A stretch of 61,078 nt of DNA, the filler included, from Basidiobolus ranarum (Eukaryota), in the NCBI GenBank assembly GCA_040143965.1. It is 14 parts of 14 records of this genome, joined end to end, with 100 filler letters (N's around TTAATTAATTAA, not from the genome) between each part and the next. Parts side by side here need not be neighbours in the genome. Positions count along the whole stretch, not along the records: positions 21,892 to 26,164 come from JASJQH010008912.1; 13 more parts are not named here. One strand, given 5' to 3'. The notes beneath the pieces are model-generated. The model ran no database searches, was not told where the DNA came from, and saw nothing but the letters and a program-made list of their open reading frames with translations. This document shows, piece by piece, positions 1,692-26,907 of this stretch. Position numbers and translations under genes: made by a program. Numbering within the stretch: position 1 is the first letter of the stretch; each line of letters begins with the position of its first letter.

Positions 1692-4283
1692 CTAAAAATT
1701 CATATATCTTAATCCTAACTTAAATCTTAATTCTTCAAATTTTGGCTTGGGTAATGGTTTGGTAAGGATGTCGGTAATCATGTCCTCAGTTGGACAGTAC
1801 TGTAGTTGGACATGCTTATTCTCAATAGCTTCCCTAACAAAGTGATGTTGAATGTCAATATGCTTACTTCTAGCATGAAACTTGGGATTTTTAGCTAAAG
1901 AAATACAACTTTGATTCTCCTTGAAAACTTTGGTGGGTGAACTTTGAATAATGCCCAAGTCTTTGAGCAGTTTCCTTAACCACATAGCCTCCTTTGTTGT
2001 ATGTGATGCTGCCATGTATTCTGCATCAGTTGTTGAAAGTGCTATGGTGGGTTGTTTCTTGCTATTCCAAGATATGGCTGCTTCACTATAAAGAAAGGTA
2101 TATCCAGTGATGGATCTTCTGTCCTCAATATCATGTCCCCAATCTGCATCACTAAACCAATTTAGATCCATATTTTCAGGCCCTGGGTGATTGTTTAAGT
2201 CCATACAGTGACTTTTGTAGCTTACGCATATCCTCAGGGTGCTCAGGATCCACAAAACCATCTGGTTGATCCATGAATATATCCTCTTCCATGTCCACAT
2301 TCAAAAAAGCAGTTTTAACATCCATTTAATGGATTTTTAAGCTGTGTTTTGCTGCTACTGCTAGTATGGTTCTGATGGAATTAAACTTTGCTACAGAAGC
2401 AGAAGTTTCATTGTAGTGCACTCCTTCCATTTGAGAGTATCCTTTAGCCACAAGCCTGGCTTTATACCTCTCTAAAGATCCATCATCTTGCTGTTTAACT
2501 TCAAACACCAATTTGCATCCAATTGATTTTTGGTCCTCAGGTACCTTAACCAAAGTCCAAGCTTGGTTATCTACATGCAACTGATACTCCTCTACCATTG
2601 CAGCACTCCAAAGCTTTGTGCTGGGACTCTCTATAGCCTCCTGTACTGATTTGGGTTCTTCAGAAATGGCTAAATTAGCACTAGGCTCCTTTTGGCCAGT
2701 GTGAGAGTAGTAATCTGGCAGAGATCTTGTCCAATTGGATCTCCTAAAATGGGAAATTGGCACTACAACTTCTGGTACCAGTTTAGGCAATGAAACCACC
2801 TCAGGCTTGGTTGAGGAGACTCCAGGTGAGAGATTTTCAGTGCTTTTCTCACTGATCATGATCTGGTGAGAAAAAGATGAATTTTCATCAAATTTTGTTT
2901 GTTTTTCTTGATCCTGGATTGTTTTGATTAAAAATTTTTTTTCTTCAGCAAATTCTATGTCCCTTGACTCGATTAGCTTCTTATTTACAGTGTCATACAG
3001 TCTGTACCCTTTTATCCCATCACAATATCTCAAAAAAAGACATTTCTGGCTTTTTTGGTCTAATTTTGATCTCTTCTGGTCTGGAATCATTGCATATGCA
3101 GTACTTCCAAAAACTCTGCAAATAGCCACATCAGGCTTACTTCCAAACCCAGCAGGATAAGGTGTCATAGCCAATAGAGACCTAGGAGTACATCTATTCC
3201 TAATATATACTGCAGTTGCAACCAATTCAGCCCAGAACTCTTTTGGTAAATCATGAGCATGAAGCATTGATCTTGCCTTTTCCATTATGGATCTGTTTGC
3301 ACATTCTGCTACTCCATTCTGCTGTAGAGAATATGGCTCTGTAGTCTGCTATTTTATCCAATGTGTTGAGCAGAAGTTAAAGAAGAGTTTTGAGGTATAT
3401 TCCCCTCCATTATCAGTATGGATAATCTTAATCTTTAGACCTGTTTCAGTATTCACCATTGCTTTGAACTTCTTGAAGGTATCAAAGGCTTCATCCTTAC
3501 TGGCCAGAAAGTACACCTAAGTATACTTTGTCTTATCATCAATGAAGGTCATAAAATACCTTTTTCTGCCTGAGGATTATGTCTGCATTGGGCCACACAG
3601 ATGTGAGTGAATCAGGCCCAGTTTTTGATCAATTGTGCTCATTCCAGAGCCCACAAACGGCTCTCTATGTTGCCTATCATATAGGTAACCTTCACATAGC
3701 TCCAAATCCAGTGGAATTACAAAAGTTAGTCCCAAAACCATCTTGTTTTTGATTAAATTTCTCATATTTTCATCTCCTAGATGACCCAATCTCCTATGCC
3801 AGATTTTCCAGTCTATCTCTTCAGTAGCAGCAGTATTAACTTGTTCATATATTGGCCTAATACAATGAAGTTTATACAAGTTATTTTGCTTAGCCCCAGA
3901 AGCTACGTAATTCCCTTTTTGATCCCTGACTGCACAGCCATTTTAATCAAAATTAAAGCTATATCCCTCAGATGTAGCTTTACTCACTGATAACAAATGT
4001 TTTGCTATCCCAGGCCCATATAGCACATTTTTCAGTGTCAAATACATGTCCCCAAAGGTGCCCCCAAGATCCACTTCAATTTCTCCCACTCCCAGAGCTT
4101 CTGGTGGCCAGTCTTCTCCCATATAAACCTTTTTGTTTATGTCAGTTTTGAGTGTCTTAAACCAGTTTTTTTGATTAGAGAAATGTTGAGAGGCTCCAGA
4201 ATCAATATACTTCAACCTACAGTCTTGTTCAGAGGTCACTGATAGGGCAGAAATGAATAAAACTTCTTCTTTGGTTGAAACCT
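1692..4283 (-). mobile_element. Ty1/Copia pol pseudogene (protease, GAG-pre-integrase, integrase, RT, RNase H)
   Basis: Motifs in Copia order: YIDSGASQH, WHRRLGHLG, HSHLCGPM, MEKARSML, YKARLVAKGYSQ, SDADWG, SWNSKKQPTIALSTTDAEY, HARSKHIDIQHHFVRE, DILTKPL. Frameshifts, plus an internal RT deletion near 2180. Confidence 0.96.
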
Positions 4284-8763: not shown

Positions 8764-11390
8764 CTCCTCGATTCCAAGAGACTCTAGACTTGGCATACTG
8801 ACTGGCTTCTCTTTGCAAACTTCCCAAAATTGCAATAAGAATGAGCGATCATACTGAAGTTTTCCCGTTTCCCTAACTGAAGAAGGCGCCTGGATGTTAG
8901 GAGGGTAAGATACATGATTCATTTGCTCATGATTAAGTACGCTTGGTACAGGAAGGGTAACATCTGATTTATTCGAAACCACATTTTTCTCTTCTAGGGT
9001 TTCCTTTGGTTCATCTTCAATGCTTATCTCCTCATCTACATTGTCCGATTCATTAACAATAGGTTTTTCTGCCTCTTCAATGGGATCTGGTATACTATCT
9101 AATTTTTCATCGGACGGTTCCGGGCGGCTGTCCAAGTTAGTGACGAGTGTTTTTTCTAATTCAACCGACGGCTCTGGCTCTTGTTCCACAGAACACTCAA
9201 CAGAGTCCACAGTTTGGATGTGTGGCTTGGACTCTTCAAAATTACCGTTGATTTCGTCATTTTTATGAGAAGACTCGACTGGTAAGGTAGTAGTTGGTGT
9301 AATATCATTTGCATCCATTGTTGCTTTATCTTCTTCAATACTAGTAACAATATCACCACTGCTTTGTTGGGTTTCTTGTACAATATTGGGTTCGTGATCG
9401 TCAGGTTGAGTTTTAAGAATTGAAGGCACTTCATTTGATACAGACTTCTCTTCAAGAACTGACTCCTCTGGCTTGATTTCAAGATCGATAGATGTTTCCG
9501 TATCTTTGATACTTTGTTTAGAAATCTCGTCTGTATTCATTACATCTACAATTGCACTTTGATTCTCTGAAACGGGAGTTATGATATCTTCTTTTATCTC
9601 TAACTCTTGTACGATGCTCTTGACATCTTCCTTTTCGTCATGGTCATCCGAATTATGAGATTTAGTAGCTGGATTAACGATTGGTATAGCTTTAGAAATC
9701 TTTTTCTGGGGTACACTAAAGAATTCAGCATCGGAATCCAGAGATTTAGGATCTCTATCTTTCTTCTCTACTGGTTTCTCCGTAATGGGGAGATGTTCAA
9801 TGGAAGGGGATTTTTTCGATATGTTAACTACACCACCTGTTTCTGGATTCACAATTTTCACCGCCTTACTTTGCTTGGGTTGGGGTGCTACAAACACGTT
9901 TGAACTGGACGGGACTCGTTGCTGAGGGATACCCCCAGGCATATGAGGTATAATTCCATACGGCATTGGATATACTGGTCTGTAGAAGGCCTGTTGCGTT
10001 GAAGGATCAAACTGTGCAGGATAGCCAGCGTATTGATAAGGATACTAGATGTAAAAGAAGTGTTAATAGAACTGATGTCAAATGAATATGTCAAAGCAGT
10101 ATCTTTCTCAAATATACATACATATGGTGCACCCCAAGTTTGAACCGGAGTACCTGGAGGAATCCCCATGGACATCGGTGACATACTAGGTGATAAAGTG
10201 ACATGAGGAATCGGAGGAGTAAGTGGGATTTGAGCTGGACTAAGACCAGGCTTCTCTCTACCTCTTTGCTGTGGAGAAGTGAAAGATCCGTGGATTACAG
10301 GGCCACTATTCATGATTGGGGAAGCCATATTCATAGATATAGGGGATTGTGGATATGGTGGACGAATGTGTGTTTGGAGAGGTGAGGGGTGAGGTTGATG
10401 CATCTGTAAGGGAGATTGAGGATGGAAATGTTGGGGCTGTTGGTGAGGGTGTGGAGCATGGTGTACAGTAGGAGAAGACATGTTCGGTGGTCTCGGGGAT
10501 TGTTGTGGTGTCCGATGAATAGACTGAGGTTCCGGATATCCATTGGGATGGATAATATGTGATTTTGACTTTGAACCGTCATTCAATGGTTGACCTCTGT
10601 AATTGGTATTTGTTGGATTTTTCGAATGGTAGTTACCATAAGATTTGTTTGGGTTATCTGGGTGACGACTGTGAGGTTGTGGAGAGTTTGGTCCACCACG
10701 AGGGCCATTTTGGTATCTTATGTTATTTCCCCCTACTGGTCTGATAAGTGGAGGGGGCCTTGGTGAAGGTTGTAATGGAGAGGACTTCAAAAAGATTAGG
10801 TATAATATCTTTGTAATTTTTCAATAGTACAAAACGCTTACCATTGCTTCTTTGGGAATTACAACTGGCGAAGTCGGATTATTGCCGAAAGGTCGTTCAG
10901 AATTTAAAGGACCTTGACCAAGGGTTCCAAATTGAATACCAGGAGCTATATTGAAATCATATTAAGAGAGTTGGAAACAGATACACAACAAAATATATCA
11001 AGTCTACCTGTAGCACCAGGATTGAGGTGAGAGGGGTTCTCTACAGACTTTGAAAATGGTTTTTTACCCCAGGCATTATTACTAGAGTTCAGATGTGGAG
11101 GGTTCCGTGGCCCTGATCTAATAATACAATTGGTATTAAGGAAAATTGTAATAGAATAGTTGCAGTAAAGTTTATCCAACTAATTGTAAAAAATAAGGAT
11201 ACGGGTATTGTGTTGTCCTTCCCGAGGTAGAAGGAGTCCCATTTGTATTTTTGTGTTGTGCAGACGGAATAACAGGTACAGTTTCTGCTTGAGTGGATTT
11301 CAATTGAGTAGTAGGTGACTGTCTAGTGGTTTGAGCATATGTAATTTGAGGCGGTGCACCATTACTGAAATTATTGGACTTTCGGTTCAT
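8764..11390 (-). CDS. TIF4631: Translation initiation factor eIF4G, multi-exon N-terminal half (truncated by contig end)
   Basis: Canonical eIF4E-binding motif YDRSFLL followed by QFWEVCKEKP; KAVKIVNPETG and KAIPIVNP motifs; Pro/Gln-rich N-terminus. ATG at 11390 and the intron boundaries are inferred. Confidence 0.85.
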
Positions 11391-17517: not shown

Positions 17518-17666
17518 ACACAAACTCCTGAATATCTCAAACAATTGATTTACTTTTCTACTATATAAGTCACCATATACTCTTAAGAATAAACTAACTA
17601 AAACACACTATCATAAGTTGCTTCTAAAACTCAAAGTCTACCCCATTATGTCAAGATCCTCCAACA
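17518..17666 (+). repeat. LTR-like repeat family C, 3' part
   Basis: Aligns by eye to 52987-53135 (ATATCTCAAACAATTGATTTACTT...ATGTCAAGATCCT). Ends in AACA exactly where the CACTA transposase is cut (SGPKS|). Confidence 0.7.
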
Positions 17667-18570
17667 GATTTAGGTCCAGATGTGATGGATAGTATCAAAA
17701 TATTATGAGTCCTATGCCATTCAGAAGGAGGAAGACTTAAATAAACTAACAATATTGGCCAGCAAGCCTTTCCAACGGTATATTTGTTTAGAAAGAAACC
17801 ATCCAGAGCCAATAGAAATGCATGATCATATGTGTTCTCAAACAAACCTTGACCTTTCAGATTCTGATAGTGATATCCATTAATTATATTACTAATACCA
17901 TCATCTTTAAGGTGAGTACTTTGGTATTGGATCAATGATCTACATTTGGGTGATTTCATCAAAACTTCAAGAAGGGGAATCATTGGTATGTAAGCCAAAT
18001 AAGAATGATCTTTACCTGATTCAGTGATTGCCAATTGCGTGCAAACAGTACATGACTTCAGGTTTTTCAGATCACTGGTGAAAGCCAAACAACCATTTGG
18101 ACATGAAGGTAGTTTAAATACTGAAGGATTCTAAGTCATACAATTGGCAAGTGTTTTCCACTTGTGCCAGGTCTGTGGCAATCAACAGTTGCCAATCAAC
18201 TGTGGTAAAAGTATAAGAAAACCAATAAGCACCTGGTTGCTACAATTGGATTGAGCTCTCCACATCTCATAAATCAAACAGCTTGCTTTACTGTAAGTGT
18301 TATGAGTGGACTAATGCTAGCCAAAAACAAAGAGTCTGTAACAAAACCATCATCTTCTTCAACTTCTGATATACTAACATCAGTACTGGAATAGCCAAGG
18401 TCAACATCTAGCAGCATGTCCTCAAAGTTGTCTGGACTTACTGGTCTGACCAAAGTTGCATTTCTATCCACATCATTCTGGTCATATAACTGTGATAACT
18501 CCATGGTATCTTGACTTTCAGTAGTGTTACCATAATTTTGATGCAAAGTATAGTCAGTGGACATAGCGAG
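17667..18570 (-). mobile_element. CACTA/En-Spm (Tnp2/Transposase_21-like) transposase pseudogene, copy 1
   Basis: CPNGCLAF...CTVC zinc motif, then LALDGFFLNK...CWPILLVYLSLPP...ILILSITSGPKS. Confidence 0.85.
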
Positions 18571-20389: not shown

Positions 20390-21460
20390 GTCATATTGAT
20401 TGAATATGTCCTATTTATGGTTTACTATGAAATAGGACTATTGGACATTCTTAAATCATAACAAGCATGCCTGTTAAGCATGGGTGAGAATTTGAGATGA
20501 TTTGAACAGGTTTTGAGAAAATAGTGATAATTGGTAAAAGTGATTTAATTGATATTTCTATCAATGAGAGCAATAAGAACAAATCTTTCAATGACAGAAT
20601 TGAGTACTAAATAATCAGAATGTAAATAAACTAACTACTGAATAATGAGTTGCTATTTACCTAATTTCAATGTTCCCACTCATCTAACTATTTTGTGTTT
20701 CTCTTAAACTTAATATATATTTAATAATTCAACTTGTGCTTTTGCTAAAGGTTTGGTTAGGATGTCAGCAAATATTTCCTCAGAAAGGCACTGGACAAGT
20801 TCAAATATATCATTCTCTATTGTTTCTCTAACAAAATGATGCCTAATATCTACATATTTTGCTCTAGCATGAAATGTAGGGTTTAGCTAATCCAATACAA
20901 CTTTGATTTTCTTCAAATTCAGTAATAGCATATTTTTGCATGTAACAGAAGTCTTTAAATAAATTTTTTAACCACATAGCTTCTTGTGCAGTCTCAGAGG
21001 CAGCCATATACTCTGCTCCTATAGTAAAAAGTGCCATGATTAGTTGCTTCTTACTATTCCAAGTTATGGCTTCATTACTACAGAGAAAAGTGCACCCAGA
21101 TGCTAATCTTTTATCATGAAGGTTTCTTCCCCAGTCTGCATCACTATAGCCTTCAAAATTTCATGCATCAGAGGTGTCAGAGTAATCCAGAACTAGATCT
21201 ACAGTTCCTCTCAAATACTTGAATATGTGTTTCGCTGCAGTTTTGTGCTCAGGTCCTGGGTCTTTGAGACATTGATAGACAGTTCCCACTGCTACACCAA
21301 TAACTGAACATGTTCCACCATTGTGTACATTGACCTACTCATAATGAATTTATAAGGGAACTACTAGCTTTGTTTTAGTCATTTTGGGTCAAATTGGATG
21401 ATATTTTGATTAATTTCACATTGAGATCCATTGGTGTTGATACAGGCTTGCTATTCTCCT
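20390..21460 (-). mobile_element. Ty1/Copia RT-RNase H remnant with PPT and putative 3' LTR
   Basis: Minus strand reads KPVSTPMD, GYSDADWG, TWNSKKQ, HARAKYVDIRHHFVRE, ADILTKPL. PPT at about 20674-20682. The left LTR boundary is uncertain. Confidence 0.85.
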
Positions 21461-21891: not shown

Positions 21892-22150
21892 TGCAAGGGC
21901 CAATAATCTCTAAGCATTGTGAAAGATGCAGCAGTGAATGCATTGAATACCAGCAAAGATTCAATCTATCTTCTTCAAACCTATAATAAAGTTTTTCATA
22001 TCCAATTACAAAATCTTTGTACAGTTGCTGTATCTGCCTGAGATCTGCCAATATGAGTTGATGCCATAAAATATGATAACAATATCCACAAACAACTCCC
22101 AATGTTGCAAATACTTATCAGGAAGAAATCTTTTCAAAATTCCACTTGAA
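21892..22150 (-). mobile_element. CACTA/En-Spm transposase C-terminal fragment
   Basis: FVIGYEKLYYRFEEDRLNLCWYSMHSLLHLSQCLEIIGP matches the H-x-L-x-H...GP motif of Tnp2-type transposases. Confidence 0.8.
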
Positions 22151-22248
22151 TAAATACAGGACTTGTTCCATTGTGCCAGGATTTATTGGACCTTGGATCA
22201 TTATATTAGAGTAAATGTGATTGAATTTAATCATGCCAGAGGGTGCTG

Positions 22249-22325
22249 GATAGTGCCAAATTGTGCCGCATAAATTTTAGAATACTTTATCCAATACGAT
22301 ATATACAGCACAATTTGGCACTATC
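22249..22325. repeat. Inverted repeat: 18-bp perfect arms (24 bp with 2 mismatches)
   Basis: GATAGTGCCAAATTGTGC (22249-22266) and GCACAATTTGGCACTATC (22308-22325); extends inward to 22272/22302. Confidence 0.92.
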
Positions 22326-24005
22326 ACAGAGAACAAGTCCTATGTACCCGGTATAAAATATCTTATTTTGTATAACGGTTCTAGTTTCGACAATTATTAT
22401 GTCACAAGAGCTTTGATAGATAGAAATACGCCATTATCATCCGATAATAGCATTGTTTATCATAATAAAATACTTAGAATATGTTGTAGAGGTATTATTA
22501 CGTGGGATTTATGCCAATTTGCTAAACTTAGTTTGAATGACGAATGCAAATCATATGGTTTGGACAACAAGAAGAAAGATGTTGATTATAAGATAATACA
22601 AAAAATATTTGAGCAACATGGATTTTTTGAACAAAAGGTATTTGATGATGTTGAATTTAAAAACATGAATGTAGAGGAATACTGTAAACAAGATGTTAGT
22701 TTATTGGAAAAATTGTTTTACATTATATACAAAGAATTACATGAAATAACCAACATAAATCCCTTGTCTAAACCAACTTTATGCAGTTTGAGTAATTCAC
22801 ATCTCAGAAAAAATTGGAAGCAAAATAAAATAAAAGTAGAACCAATTCCATTTAAATATGATAAAATATTTTCCAGTGTACCTGGTGGAAGAGTTCAGGC
22901 TATCAAAAATGGTGTATACAAAGATCAGACATATGTACAAATGGATATAAACAGTATGTATCCTTATATATGTATGGTTAATAAATTCCCCATAGGTAGT
23001 ATAAGGAAGCAAAACAGATACAAAGGTGATGAATTATATATGTGTTTGTGTGATGTTGATCAGAGTAAACTCAAATATAAAATCGTTGGTATTAGGAACA
23101 AACAAGATAGATTAAATTGGATGATGAATCATGTGCAGAATGTTTGGTTATGGAAAGAAGAAGTAGAAACATTATTAAAATATAAAGTAAAGTTGAGACA
23201 AAATTATATTTAATTTGGGATAAACAAGATTATATATTTGACATTATGAAACTATATAAAGATGTACGTGTGAAAGCTAAACAAGTAAAAATAAACTTAA
23301 GGAAAACATGGCCAAAATGTTAGGTAATGGTAACACAGGCAAGTTGATAGAAAAAAATCATGATGATGTATGGCAAATAGGGTATTTGTATCATGATGCA
23401 CAAAATTTTGTAAACAAATATGGTGTTGAAGAAACATTGTTTGAATTAATGGGGGTCATGAACAGAATTCTGCTAAATCTTTTAAAGATTCAGATGAGTA
23501 CTTATCTAAACTGAGACATATAGGATGTAGAATATATGCATTATCCAGGTTATATTTGTGGAATTTGATGATGTTGTGTGATAACGTACTATATATTGAT
23601 ACTGATAGTCTTATTATATCTAAACATGAAATGGAAAAACTACCCGTAGGAGATGATTATGGTATGTTAAAAATGGAAGAATTGGGTGATGAAGTAATTA
23701 TTGTTAGTCCCAAAAGTTACATGATATGTAACAAGACAAGACTTAATGGTTATAAAAATGGTGATATATGGGAAGCCAGAAAACAAATAGATAACAAAGT
23801 GTTATATACAGATAATAAAATATGTAAGAAATTATACAAATATCTTATTAACAAAGAAACTTACGTTATTACAAAGTTTAATAAATTAACCAAACGTTTT
23901 ATATCAAAAAATAACAATATGTGGGAATTATTTACTTTAAACAAGACATACACAGAAAAAAAATTGGAATCATATGGTGGCAATTTTTTTAAAAATGGAA
24001 TTTAA
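22326..24005 (+). pseudogene. Protein-primed family-B DNA polymerase (DNA_pol_B_2 type), 5' truncated, 3 frameshifts
   Basis: ExoII YNGSSFD, ExoIII YCKQDV, PGGRV, motif A DINSMYP..M...FPIG, motif B KMLGNGNTGKL, IYALSR, motif C YIDTDS and PKSY, in the correct order. Frameshifts at about 23189-23191, 23287-23291 and 23451-23455. ExoI is missing. Confidence 0.92.
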
Positions 24006-24813
24006 TTTTGGATCAAACATATTATGCCTGTTAAAGTAGTGACCAGGATGCCTCCTGCAATTAAAATGGGGGTCAGCTCTTCAATTAATACAAGTGAAAT
24101 TGCAGCCACCCCCAATGGAATCAAAATGGCTTTAATTACTTTAAAAATTTTGTAAAAATCAAAATCATGTTTGTCTGCAAAAAACAACTCTGTTGGATTT
24201 TGTTCAAAAAAGCCAAGTAAAATTTCCAATTTGGATTTCCTAATTTCTGCAGTATTAGGGATATTATTAGGGAAATCTACTCCTACAAAATTAACAGCAC
24301 CATATTTCTTTTTCAAGTCTTGCATGTTATTACTAATCCAATCAGTGTCATCCATATGAGTAATTATTACTAATGTATTTTTACTACCTCTTTCTTTTAA
24401 GCCTTTAAAATTATCAAGAAAATGATAGGATTTGATGTATCTACCTTGTTTAGTCACAAAACAGTACCAATGATAACCGTGTTTAGTTAAATCAAGAAAA
24501 ATAAATAGTTTTTTAATATATGTTTTCAAATAGTTTAAAATGTGTGGAATATTATTAGTTGCAAAACTATTGGTAATAGTTTTGAATTTGTACTCAACAT
24601 CAGTGGCACATAACCCAATGGTGTCAGTTACAAAAACTCTGAATTATTGCTATAAGCTGAAGTAATACTCAACAAGACGGATTCAACACTATCCCCAACA
24701 GGAAATTTATTATTCAAGTCAAATAATTCACCCTGTGTAACCATATTTGAGATAGTAGACTTGCCATCACCGGTTTTACCAATTAAAAAGATTTTTGTAC
24801 AAAGACGTGACAT
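24002..24813 (-). pseudogene. AIG1/GIMAP-like P-loop GTPase 2 with C-terminal hydrophobic anchor (one frameshift)
   Basis: G1 GKTGDGKST. Adding one T in the run at 24632-24636 joins it to VTDTIGL (G3), then FVTKQGR and VIITHMD (G4), and a hydrophobic C-terminus ILIPLGVAAISLVL...ILIAGGILVTTLTGIICLI. Confidence 0.85.
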
Positions 24814-24851
24814 TATATATAATTGTCATATTGTATGATACAAATAAAATC

Positions 24852-25694
24852 TCAATTGATGTTATATGTATTATATATATAACTATGGGTATTTTTAATA
24901 TAATCTGTTAATTTTTGATTTCTATCATAATTATATAACCCAACAAATGGGATTTTTTGGTTAAAAATATATTCATAAATATTTTTCTGTGCTTCCTTAT
25001 CCAATAATAAATTTATATAATTTTTAATATTATTGGACGTTAAAAAAAATACAAAATACTTTTGTAGATTTTGTAATAAAAAACTTTCATCTATATCATA
25101 TTTAAATTTGGGATAAAAGTTGTTTGAAAATAAATTACAAATGATTAAAGTATTTTTGTCATGAATTTATTGATACTAATTAATATAATGTGGCTTAAGA
25201 CCGGGAACAATTTCTGGGAGATTAATAGATTGTATTTTATAGTATTTGAAAACATCTGGGATAGAATTTTTATTTCTTTCATACCGTTCATCATTGCTAT
25301 TGGTTAAAACAATTATTTTATTAATGTCACAAACATTAAAAAACACAGAATGGAAAAAGTCCATAAAATATTTAATGGGTTTTGTGTGCAACCTGTCTCT
25401 TTTGACAACAAGAACAATGAGATTAAAATCTTTATTGTTAAAACTAAGGAATTGTTTTTTATATTCAAAAATCTCGTTACTTAATGTGTCAGAATCATCA
25501 GTGAGGCTCTTAAAAGGGAATCCTGGTGTATCATGTACTAAAATACTATGATCACTAGAAAAACCGGATGTAATAATTGTTGTACAACTATTAAGAGATG
25601 AGGATGACTGAAATATATTATTGCCGGTTATAGCTTTAGCCAAATTGGACTTGCCGGAACTTTGTAAACCTAGTAACAAAATGCTAAACACCAT
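24852..25694 (-). pseudogene. AIG1/GIMAP-like P-loop GTPase 1 (two in-frame stops)
   Basis: ILLLGLQSSGKSNLAKAITG..FQSSSSLNSCTT (G1/G2), VHDTPGF (G3), LVVKRDR, IVLTNSN (G4). The frame stays open for about 100 more codons after TAG 25176-25178 and TAA 25167-25169, to TGA at 24852. Confidence 0.85.
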
Positions 25695-26264
25695 ATGTAG
25701 ATATATACATTATACATAAACCATGCAAGACAAATTTATACTCACTTATAGGGGAAAATTGGGGGGAATCATTTCTCATAACCAACAATTGGGCACAACA
25801 GCTCCTGCATTACAAAACACCAGTAGTTTTGGCACACCGGTGACAAATCACAGCACTTGATGATGGATTAATCTGCAGTATGATAGTAGTGATCAGGATC
25901 GCTTGATTCATCATTTTAGATCAGCAAATTATTTATTCAATCATGTAAGCTTCTAATTGGGTGAAAATGTGAATGGATTGAGCCATATCAAGCTAATACG
26001 GCTGCTCAAGCTTTTTATTGACAGACATTTTTCATTTGATTGTAGTGAAATCGCTTGTATTAATAGGCTATCATTGATTTTTTTGATATATGACAATTTC
26101 ACGCTATCAGTGTTTCATAAACACATAGGCAATTGTGATCTAACTAAAGCGATTTATGCTATATNNNNNNNNNNNNNNNNNNNNNNNNNNNNNNNNNNNN
26201 NNNNNNNNTTAATTAATTAANNNNNNNNNNNNNNNNNNNNNNNNNNNNNNNNNNNNNNNNNNNN

Positions 26265-26907
26265 TTGTGTTCATTGGGGAACTCTGTGTCCAGAGCAGCT
26301 CTGAGCTCTTTGAGAAGTAGCAAATAGTTAGCGCTGTCACTTTTATCAACAATGTTACAGATGGCAGCCTGTCTTCCAGGATATTCCCAATCGATATCGA
26401 TTCCATCAAGATCCCAGCCATCAGGGTTGGCATCATAGTCAGGCTTGGTGTTTTTGCGGACAAATACAAGAGCATTATTGATGAACTTCTTGCGTAGTGC
26501 CGCATCACGTACAACAGTGGAGAAGGTTTGACTACCAGTCCAGCCACCCAACGAGATCAGAGTCTTTACACCCTTTGCACTGGCTACTTGCTTGAGTTTA
26601 CGAATTCTGTTGCCATCATAGTATCTGTCGATAGTGATTTCGGTAGGGTCAGCAGTTTTCTTGGTAAGTACTCCAAATCCTGAAGCAGACAGATTAATGT
26701 TAGTGACATGCAATTATTATTGAGCAATTTCGGGAGCCTACCGTAATTAATATGGGTAACCTTGTCCAAGCTTAGCTGTTCTGGTTCCACTTTACCCCAA
26801 GGCACATAGTAGCCAACAACAACCTTATCATCGGCAGCCAAGCTTCCAAGTGGAGCAAATAGTAAGGTTGCAGATAGTGTTGAAAGTATGAAGATAGAGA
26901 GCCTCAT
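26265..26907 (-). CDS. Secreted GH18 chitinase, 3' truncated (intron 26741-26680)
   Basis: Signal peptide, VVGYYVPW, THINYG/GFG, KTLISLGGWTGS, catalytic DGIDIDWEYPG (DxDxE). Confidence 0.95.

Follow-up and report, generated by a model that had tools for sequence, protein, structure and literature searches.

Why should a protein-primed DNA polymerase lie tail to tail with two GTPases of the immune-type AIG1/GIMAP family in DNA assembled from the fungus Basidiobolus ranarum? The question is raised by a block of 3.4 kb (22326-25760, ~27% GC) in the window studied here, a stretch of 61,078 nucleotides from assembly GCA_040143965.1. The polymerase and the GTPases sit together on a 4.27-kb contig (21893-26165). 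The original prediction saw in them a possibly undescribed self-replicating element or an endogenous DNA virus. All three genes are dead through truncation, frameshifts and stop codons, and the copy, 5′-truncated and with several disabling lesions, is not a living self-replicating element. On balance, the block is probably a dead, 5′-truncated piece of a linear element, either of the virus-like element (VLE) type or polinton-derived, which carried AIG1-like GTPases as cargo. VLEs are cytoplasmic linear double-stranded DNA (dsDNA) plasmids described in Mucoromycota and Zoopagomycota (Heneghan, Salzberg & Wolfe, 2026; PMC13348850), and it is these that the layout of the block fits best. As that paper presents VLEs having a DNA polymerase (DNAP) and small cargo open reading frames (ORFs), the class is probably not an undescribed one.

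Remains of a polymerase and two GTPases

The protein-primed family-B polymerase is a pseudogene on the plus strand (22344-24005), of which the C-terminal ~560 codons survive, from ExoII to the end. Its match to the Pfam family DNA_pol_B_2 at 22320-23210 is strong (E 7.6e-23; 81.6 bits against a cut-off of 25.8). Four frame pieces, at 22320-23210, ~23200-23316, 23305-23511 and 23478-24002, with the stop codon TAA at 24003-24005, are collinear in alignment with full-length relatives from ExoII to the natural C-terminus. Four pieces imply three frameshifts, and these are located near 23185-23200, 23285-23305 and 23470-23480. The predicted ExoII (YNGSSFD), ExoIII (EYCKQDV) and motifs A (DINSMYP), B (KMLGNGNTGK) and C (YIDTDS) are all present and align with those of the full-length relatives. 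ExoI is missing because the gene is truncated: homology begins at ~22344, and everything upstream of ExoII, which in the relatives amounts to 420-580 codons and includes ExoI (FFDxET), is gone. Translation in the standard code leaves the frames open, and Trp is encoded by TGG.

Directly before the start of the homology, where the gene is cut, there is a palindrome of 77 nt (22249-22325), with perfect arms of 18 nt (27 nt at 89%) and a loop of 41 nt. It is unique in the window (2 matches vs 0.04 expected), and as single-stranded DNA it folds at -19.6 kcal/mol (z -6.1), far better than its shuffles. The palindrome could be a foldback insertion, resembling a miniature inverted-repeat transposable element, or the scar of the break that truncated the element.

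Both GTPases are encoded on the minus strand. The AIG1/GIMAP-like G domain of GTPase 1 (25694-25179, 172 codons) runs to a TAG at 25176-25178, which is followed two codons on by a second stop, TAA, at 25167-25169. It contains the motifs GLQSSGKS, DTPG, a conserved-box-like LIVLVVKRDRL, and VLTNSND, and its match to Pfam AIG1 scores 33.9 bits against a gathering score of 27; the expected pairing of a protein-primed polymerase with GTPases of this family is thus borne out on both sides. Behind the two stops, in the frame of GTPase 1, there is an open frame of 104 codons (25166-24855; the whole feature is 24852-25166) with a GC content of 17-22%. It matched no Pfam family, showed no similarity to the GTPase family and yielded no relatives; it represents the decayed end of GTPase 1 or else a small ORF in its own right. 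GTPase 2 begins 38 bp below the stop of this frame. The interval of 38 bp that had been given for the two GTPase genes applies only if GTPase 1 is read through both TAG and TAA into 25166-24855; from its first stop, the TAG, the distance is 362 bp.

GTPase 2 (24813-24005, stop 24002-24004) is AIG1-like with a C-terminal hydrophobic anchor. A single frameshift near 24631-24645 divides it into a P-loop piece (24813-24631) and a piece of 212 codons (24640-24005), the latter ending in ~40 hydrophobic residues. The P-loop piece reaches only 15.7 bits against Pfam AIG1; in the family alignment that contains the GTPase 2 homologues P0051 and P0062, nine of the ten members match AIG1. A recent tandem duplication of the two GTPases was considered and is ruled out, since they are barely alike (BLASTP E 0.012 over 21 residues). 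The upstream motif of yeast plasmids is ATNTGA, which was found by eye before GTPase 2 and not before GTPase 1; it is too short to carry meaning.

The distinctness of this compact, AT-rich and intronless block from its flanks, also predicted, is evident at a resolution of 300 nt, with GC at 0.17-0.32 in the block vs 0.34-0.36 in the flanks. Four 1-kb windows across the block have GC contents of 0.305, 0.271, 0.282 and 0.293, and three of the five 1-kb windows below 0.30, among the 61 of the whole stretch, lie inside it. None of the three genes needs an intron to be read. The polymerase does converge on the GTPases as described, in its incomplete form that starts at ExoII, and the stop codons of the polymerase and GTPase 2 share the four nucleotides TTAA (24002-24005), with no intergenic DNA. 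Overlapping convergent stops of this kind are unusual for nuclear genes. The common low GC, the lack of introns, the shared TTAA and the presence of lesions in all three genes argue for one element rather than chance neighbours. The composition of the GTPases, which is like that of the polymerase, their lack of introns, the stop overlap of GTPase 2 and their similar state of decay likewise suggest that they were its cargo.

Relatives of the three genes

A search among longer proteins yielded three relatives of the first polymerase piece, with 45-49% identity over 90-94% of its length. The closest is MVEG_12429 of Podila verticillata (49% identity), a partial protein of 946 aa encoded on a contig of 10,171 bp; the two others, of 1,126 and 1,143 aa, are each 45% identical. 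In each of the three (P0001-P0003) DNA_pol_B_2 follows a long N-terminal region, and an invariant CFYxC...HYxI pair precedes the exonuclease domain. This pre-exonuclease region of the relatives was modelled from the three-sequence alignment, with low confidence (pLDDT 54.5). When the model was compared with 48,161 representative chains, OTU deubiquitinases, viral OTUs or arterivirus PLP2 occupied ranks 1-28 (Z 5.4-3.1, VIA-align wide); Foldseek returned no match for it. After the OTU-like His, all three relatives also have an invariant CxxCGSxxH, whose pattern resembles that of a small zinc-binding element, placed behind the protease domain and ahead of the exonuclease domain.

Polintons have a polymerase of TP-vOTU-EXO-PALM architecture, and mitochondrial linear plasmid polymerases are described as having no vOTU (PMC11161782). 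The OTU-like region of the relatives would place the lineage in the polinton-derived branch, so that the polymerase, judged on its modelled relatives, would belong with polintons and cytoplasmic linear plasmids and not with mitochondrial plasmids. The ESM Atlas clusters nearest to P0003 are DNA_pol_B_2 proteins assigned to Preplasmiviricota and Parabasalia (score 0.95), to be taken as a lead only, and among PDB sequences the polymerase profile found nothing above chance level. A fungal lineage of capsid-less plasmid-like elements has been reported among mavirus-related polymerases, in an account that describes mavirus polymerases as having lost most of the exonuclease domain (PMC13215967); the window polymerase keeps ExoII and ExoIII. 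One distant polymerase match came from positions 10001-10729 of a 17-kb metagenome contig (L001), where 13.6 kb contain two ORFs of at least 100 aa under translation table 11. A different genetic code, or heavy decay, may explain this.

The relatives of GTPase 1 appear from sequence to be only distant ones, mostly animal GIMAPs. An exhaustive HMMER search of 1.84 billion representatives found 85 proteins at E<=1e-3, seven at E<=1e-10 and none at E<=1e-30, the best match having an E value of 4.9e-17. Thirty of the 85 were looked up: 19 were animal GIMAP/AIG1 proteins (fish, molluscs, bird, lizard, hemichordate), nine were metagenomic, and two were the Mortierellomycotina proteins P0051 and P0062, of ~250 aa. 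A model of GTPase 1 (pLDDT 73.2) retrieved human GIMAP2/7/1/4 at all of Foldseek ranks 1-10 (E 2e-7 to 1.1e-6, TM 0.54-0.65), ahead of Toc33/34, FeoB and Era. A PDB sequence search placed GIMAP5/7/4 in the top five of its 7 matches, but with E values of 0.14-0.25. In word-indexed searches neither GTPase 1 nor the long piece of GTPase 2 retrieved a homologue of similar length.

GTPase 2 has closer kin. Its P-loop piece is 56-61% identical to P0051 and P0062 (E 4e-8 and 8e-11), and its C-terminal piece 24-28% (E 6e-12 and 6e-11), by which it clearly falls into the P0051/P0062 family of Mortierellomycotina. The P0062 gene is conserved, its cluster showing at least 90% identity in Podila and Haplosporangium, and it lies on a scaffold of 3.3 Mb; it is a host gene. 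AIG1 domains are also known as host genes in Glomeromycotina (PMC8778642; PMC6872716). In the ESM Atlas GTPase 2 gave sub-threshold leads only (0.82). The proposal that the GTPases are viral cargo is accordingly not borne out in its original form: since GTPase 2 is related to a conserved nuclear family, cargo describes one of two possible directions of exchange.

Some GIMAPs are tail-anchored. As in these, GTPase 2 has a tail anchor, and the window GTPases share with AIG1/GIMAP (IAN) GTPases the P-loop, DTxG, a conserved-box-like strand and a G4 motif of the form T/N-x-x-D, together with the GIMAP-like fold of GTPase 1. They differ in that identity to any of the 1.84 billion representatives is at most 39% over ~105 residues, and in being single-domain, intronless, AT-rich, broken and placed beside a plasmid-type polymerase.

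Candidate origins of the block

The closest parallel to the block is provided by VLEs, whose contigs measure 3.9-14.5 kb and encode a DNAP with a few ORFs of unknown function. Examples given are a 10-kb contig of Podila clonocystis, an 8-kb Umbelopsis element with a HET-domain protein, and Coemansia VLEs with families of kinase ORFs; frameshifts or stops make pseudogenes of 9 of the 45 DNAP genes in a single isolate (PMC13348850). As these elements are presented there, they and the block have in common their occurrence in early-diverging terrestrial fungi including Podila, a B-type protein-primed DNAP with a few small ORFs on a few kb, the lack of introns, close gene packing, low GC, and DNAP pseudogenes with frameshifts. 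The conflict-type cargo of VLEs includes a HET-domain protein and kinases, and in the block the GTPases, encoded on the strand opposite the polymerase, would be its counterpart. Unlike VLEs, the block is truncated, is flanked by other DNA, and lacks terminal inverted repeats (TIRs) and helper genes. In the main text of PMC13348850, PMC10583447 and PMC13215967 the word "GTPase" does not occur. In the literature searched, AIG1 was nowhere brought together with polinton, nor GIMAP with protein-primed, and the pairing appears new.

Likeness to pGKL1 and pGKL2 of Kluyveromyces lactis can be drawn from their description: the block too has a protein-primed polymerase, is very AT-rich and compact, and uses both strands. 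These plasmids have a terminal protein fused to the polymerase, compact AT-rich genomes and genes on both strands. In place of their chitinase, gamma-toxin and immunity genes the block has GTPases. The pGKL features are stated in part in PMC11161782 and PMC13348850.

Several observations weigh against the reading of the block as a VLE-type or polinton-derived remnant with GTPase cargo. The arrangement of polymerase and GTPases has been seen once only. The contrast in GC between block and flanks is moderate, and among the 61 1-kb windows there are two more that match the block in AT-richness. A search for inverted repeats found none joining the two ends of the block or of the contig, which answers in the negative the check for TIRs that had been proposed; if the copy is truncated, their absence is expected. 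A Pfam search of eight translated pieces of the contig detected no capsid, penton, A32-type or other packaging ATPase, integrase, Ulp1-like protease or RNA polymerase, in agreement with the original prediction, and helper (YKP) genes were not found on the contig either. With no TIRs and no helper, capsid or integrase genes, the class is assigned by polymerase lineage and by style. The OTU match, although strikingly consistent across its ranks, has a modest Z, comes from a low-confidence model, and derives from the relatives rather than from the window copy. The nearest named relatives of GTPase 2 include a host gene of Podila and Haplosporangium. Scans of IMG/VR with P0003 and the polymerase alignment, and with the GTPase 2 family alignment, recovered no relative, which is weak evidence as only pattern-matched stretches were compared, and one metagenome scan gave only the polymerase on L001, at 24% identity.

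Could the block instead be a fragment of a Polinton/Maverick, its capsid, ATPase, protease and integrase genes lost or beyond the truncation and the GTPases Polinton cargo? This is rather unlikely, while having real points in its favor. Polintons have the same TP-vOTU-EXO-PALM architecture (PMC11161782), seen here through the relatives; they reside in nuclear DNA and carry variable cargo; the fragment lies in non-element DNA, as an integrating element would; and the Preplasmiviricota and Parabasalia clusters near P0003 lead in the same direction. Moreover, the 3.4 kb that survive leave room for such a fragment. The integrase, capsid and packaging ATPase families were nevertheless sought and not found in any ORF of the contig, short as the surviving piece is, and neither was a maturation protease. 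The block is more AT-rich than its flanks, and its strong AT bias relative to the host, with its overlapping convergent stops, fits cytoplasmic plasmids better. The closest named relative of the polymerase, too, is on a contig of 10 kb, about as long as a small plasmid. A nuclear insertion of a mitochondrial linear plasmid would likewise be AT-rich, and insertions of this kind are reported in nuclear genomes of Mucoromycota (PMC10583447). It is scarcely credible here, given the OTU-like domain indicated in the relatives, which is described as absent from mitochondrial plasmid polymerases (PMC11161782), frames that are open in the standard code with TGG for Trp, and a contig without an RNA polymerase gene.

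The GTPases might also be decayed host genes beside which a polymerase fragment came to lie by chance, with no functional link. The homology of GTPase 2 to a nuclear family of Mortierellomycotina, the expansion of AIG1 domains as host genes reported for Glomeromycotina (PMC8778642) and the single occurrence of the link between polymerase and GTPases would be accounted for in this way. It is distinctly unlikely, as the GTPases have the low GC of the polymerase and read without introns, nuclear genes with overlapping stops would lack the space for 3′ ends of their own, and a search of 1.84 billion representatives gave GTPase 1 no close relative (best E 4.9e-17). Very unlikely, finally, is that nothing is integrated and the contig is an assembly chimera, or that a free plasmid of high copy number, or a contaminant, has been fused to DNA with which it has no connection. 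The assembly is very fragmented, with contigs of ~4.3 kb, the left junction is a palindrome, a structure able to mislead assemblers, and free VLEs can carry frameshifted DNAP genes, as PMC13348850 records for one isolate. A polymerase cut in mid-gene with about half of it missing would, however, not be tolerable for a replicating plasmid unless another polymerase served it, and no TIRs were found on the contig.

Surroundings and a proposed ancestor

The left flank of the block (21893-22248, GC ~0.34-0.35) has on its minus strand an open frame of 70 codons (21893-22102) that runs off the end of the contig. It matched no Pfam family at E<=1; we take it to resemble the C-terminal part of a CACTA/KDZ-type transposase. 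In the right flank (25761-26165, GC ~0.35-0.36) no gene was recognised, and no inverted repeat pairs the two flanks. A scan for promoters and terminators of bacterial type gave nothing informative.

The window as a whole consists of 14 contigs of ~4.26-4.37 kb, in descending order of length, joined by N50-TTAATTAATTAA-N50 spacers. Since the contigs are merely joined by these spacers, those that adjoin in the window are not adjacent in the genome. The small contigs of the assembly are rich in transposable elements. Copia-type retrotransposon pieces occur across several contigs, with repeats common to contigs, and one contig has an open frame that resembles a KDZ/CACTA-type transposase (sites 1692-3285, 20864-21037, 54019-56767; 17651-18088). 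A GH18 chitinase and transporters for peptides and for nucleotide sugars are further found on the other contigs, and by this gene content the organism looks like a fungus. Some fungal killer plasmids carry chitinases as cargo. The chitinase fragment here (26213-26907, on the next contig) has a signal-peptide-like start, the motif DGIDIDWEYP and host-like GC, and lies in two frames, probably separated by an intron; its contig is unlinked to the polymerase and GTPase block and does not look plasmid-like.

For the ancestor of the block we propose a compact, AT-rich, intronless linear dsDNA element that would have replicated by protein priming. Intact members of the polymerase lineage, of ~1,130 aa, would combine an N-terminal priming region, an OTU-like protease, an exonuclease and palm domains. 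At terminal inverted repeats the ancestral polymerase would have used its own N-terminal domain for priming, and the OTU domain may have cut the primer free; the genes would have been transcribed with no splicing. Two convergent AIG1-like GTPases, one of them tail-anchored in a membrane, may have been accessory cargo that served maintenance or conflict, a role suggested by comparison with known VLEs, whose cargo includes HET-domain proteins and kinases. What is left of the element would now lie in the nucleus, between ordinary-looking DNA of a fungus-like host.

For a long time budding yeasts were the only known hosts of cytoplasmic linear plasmids. In 2026 these plasmids emerged as ancient and varied in further fungal phyla, where much of their cargo has no assigned role. 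As a tentative proposal, one that we hold to be possible rather than probable, plasmid-like elements of early-diverging fungi may carry membrane-anchored AIG1/GIMAP-type GTPases as cargo of their own, exchanged with the small nuclear AIG1-like genes of Mortierellomycotina. A single decayed fragment makes this a lead for a targeted search and not a result. If true, immune-type GTPases in fungi would be in part a trait of mobile elements, concerned with plasmid maintenance, the exclusion of rivals or the manipulation of the host. A VLE-style polymerase together with AIG1/GIMAP-like GTPases would add a new class of cargo, and would suggest one way in which GTPases of immune type pass between mobile elements and the genomes of fungi.

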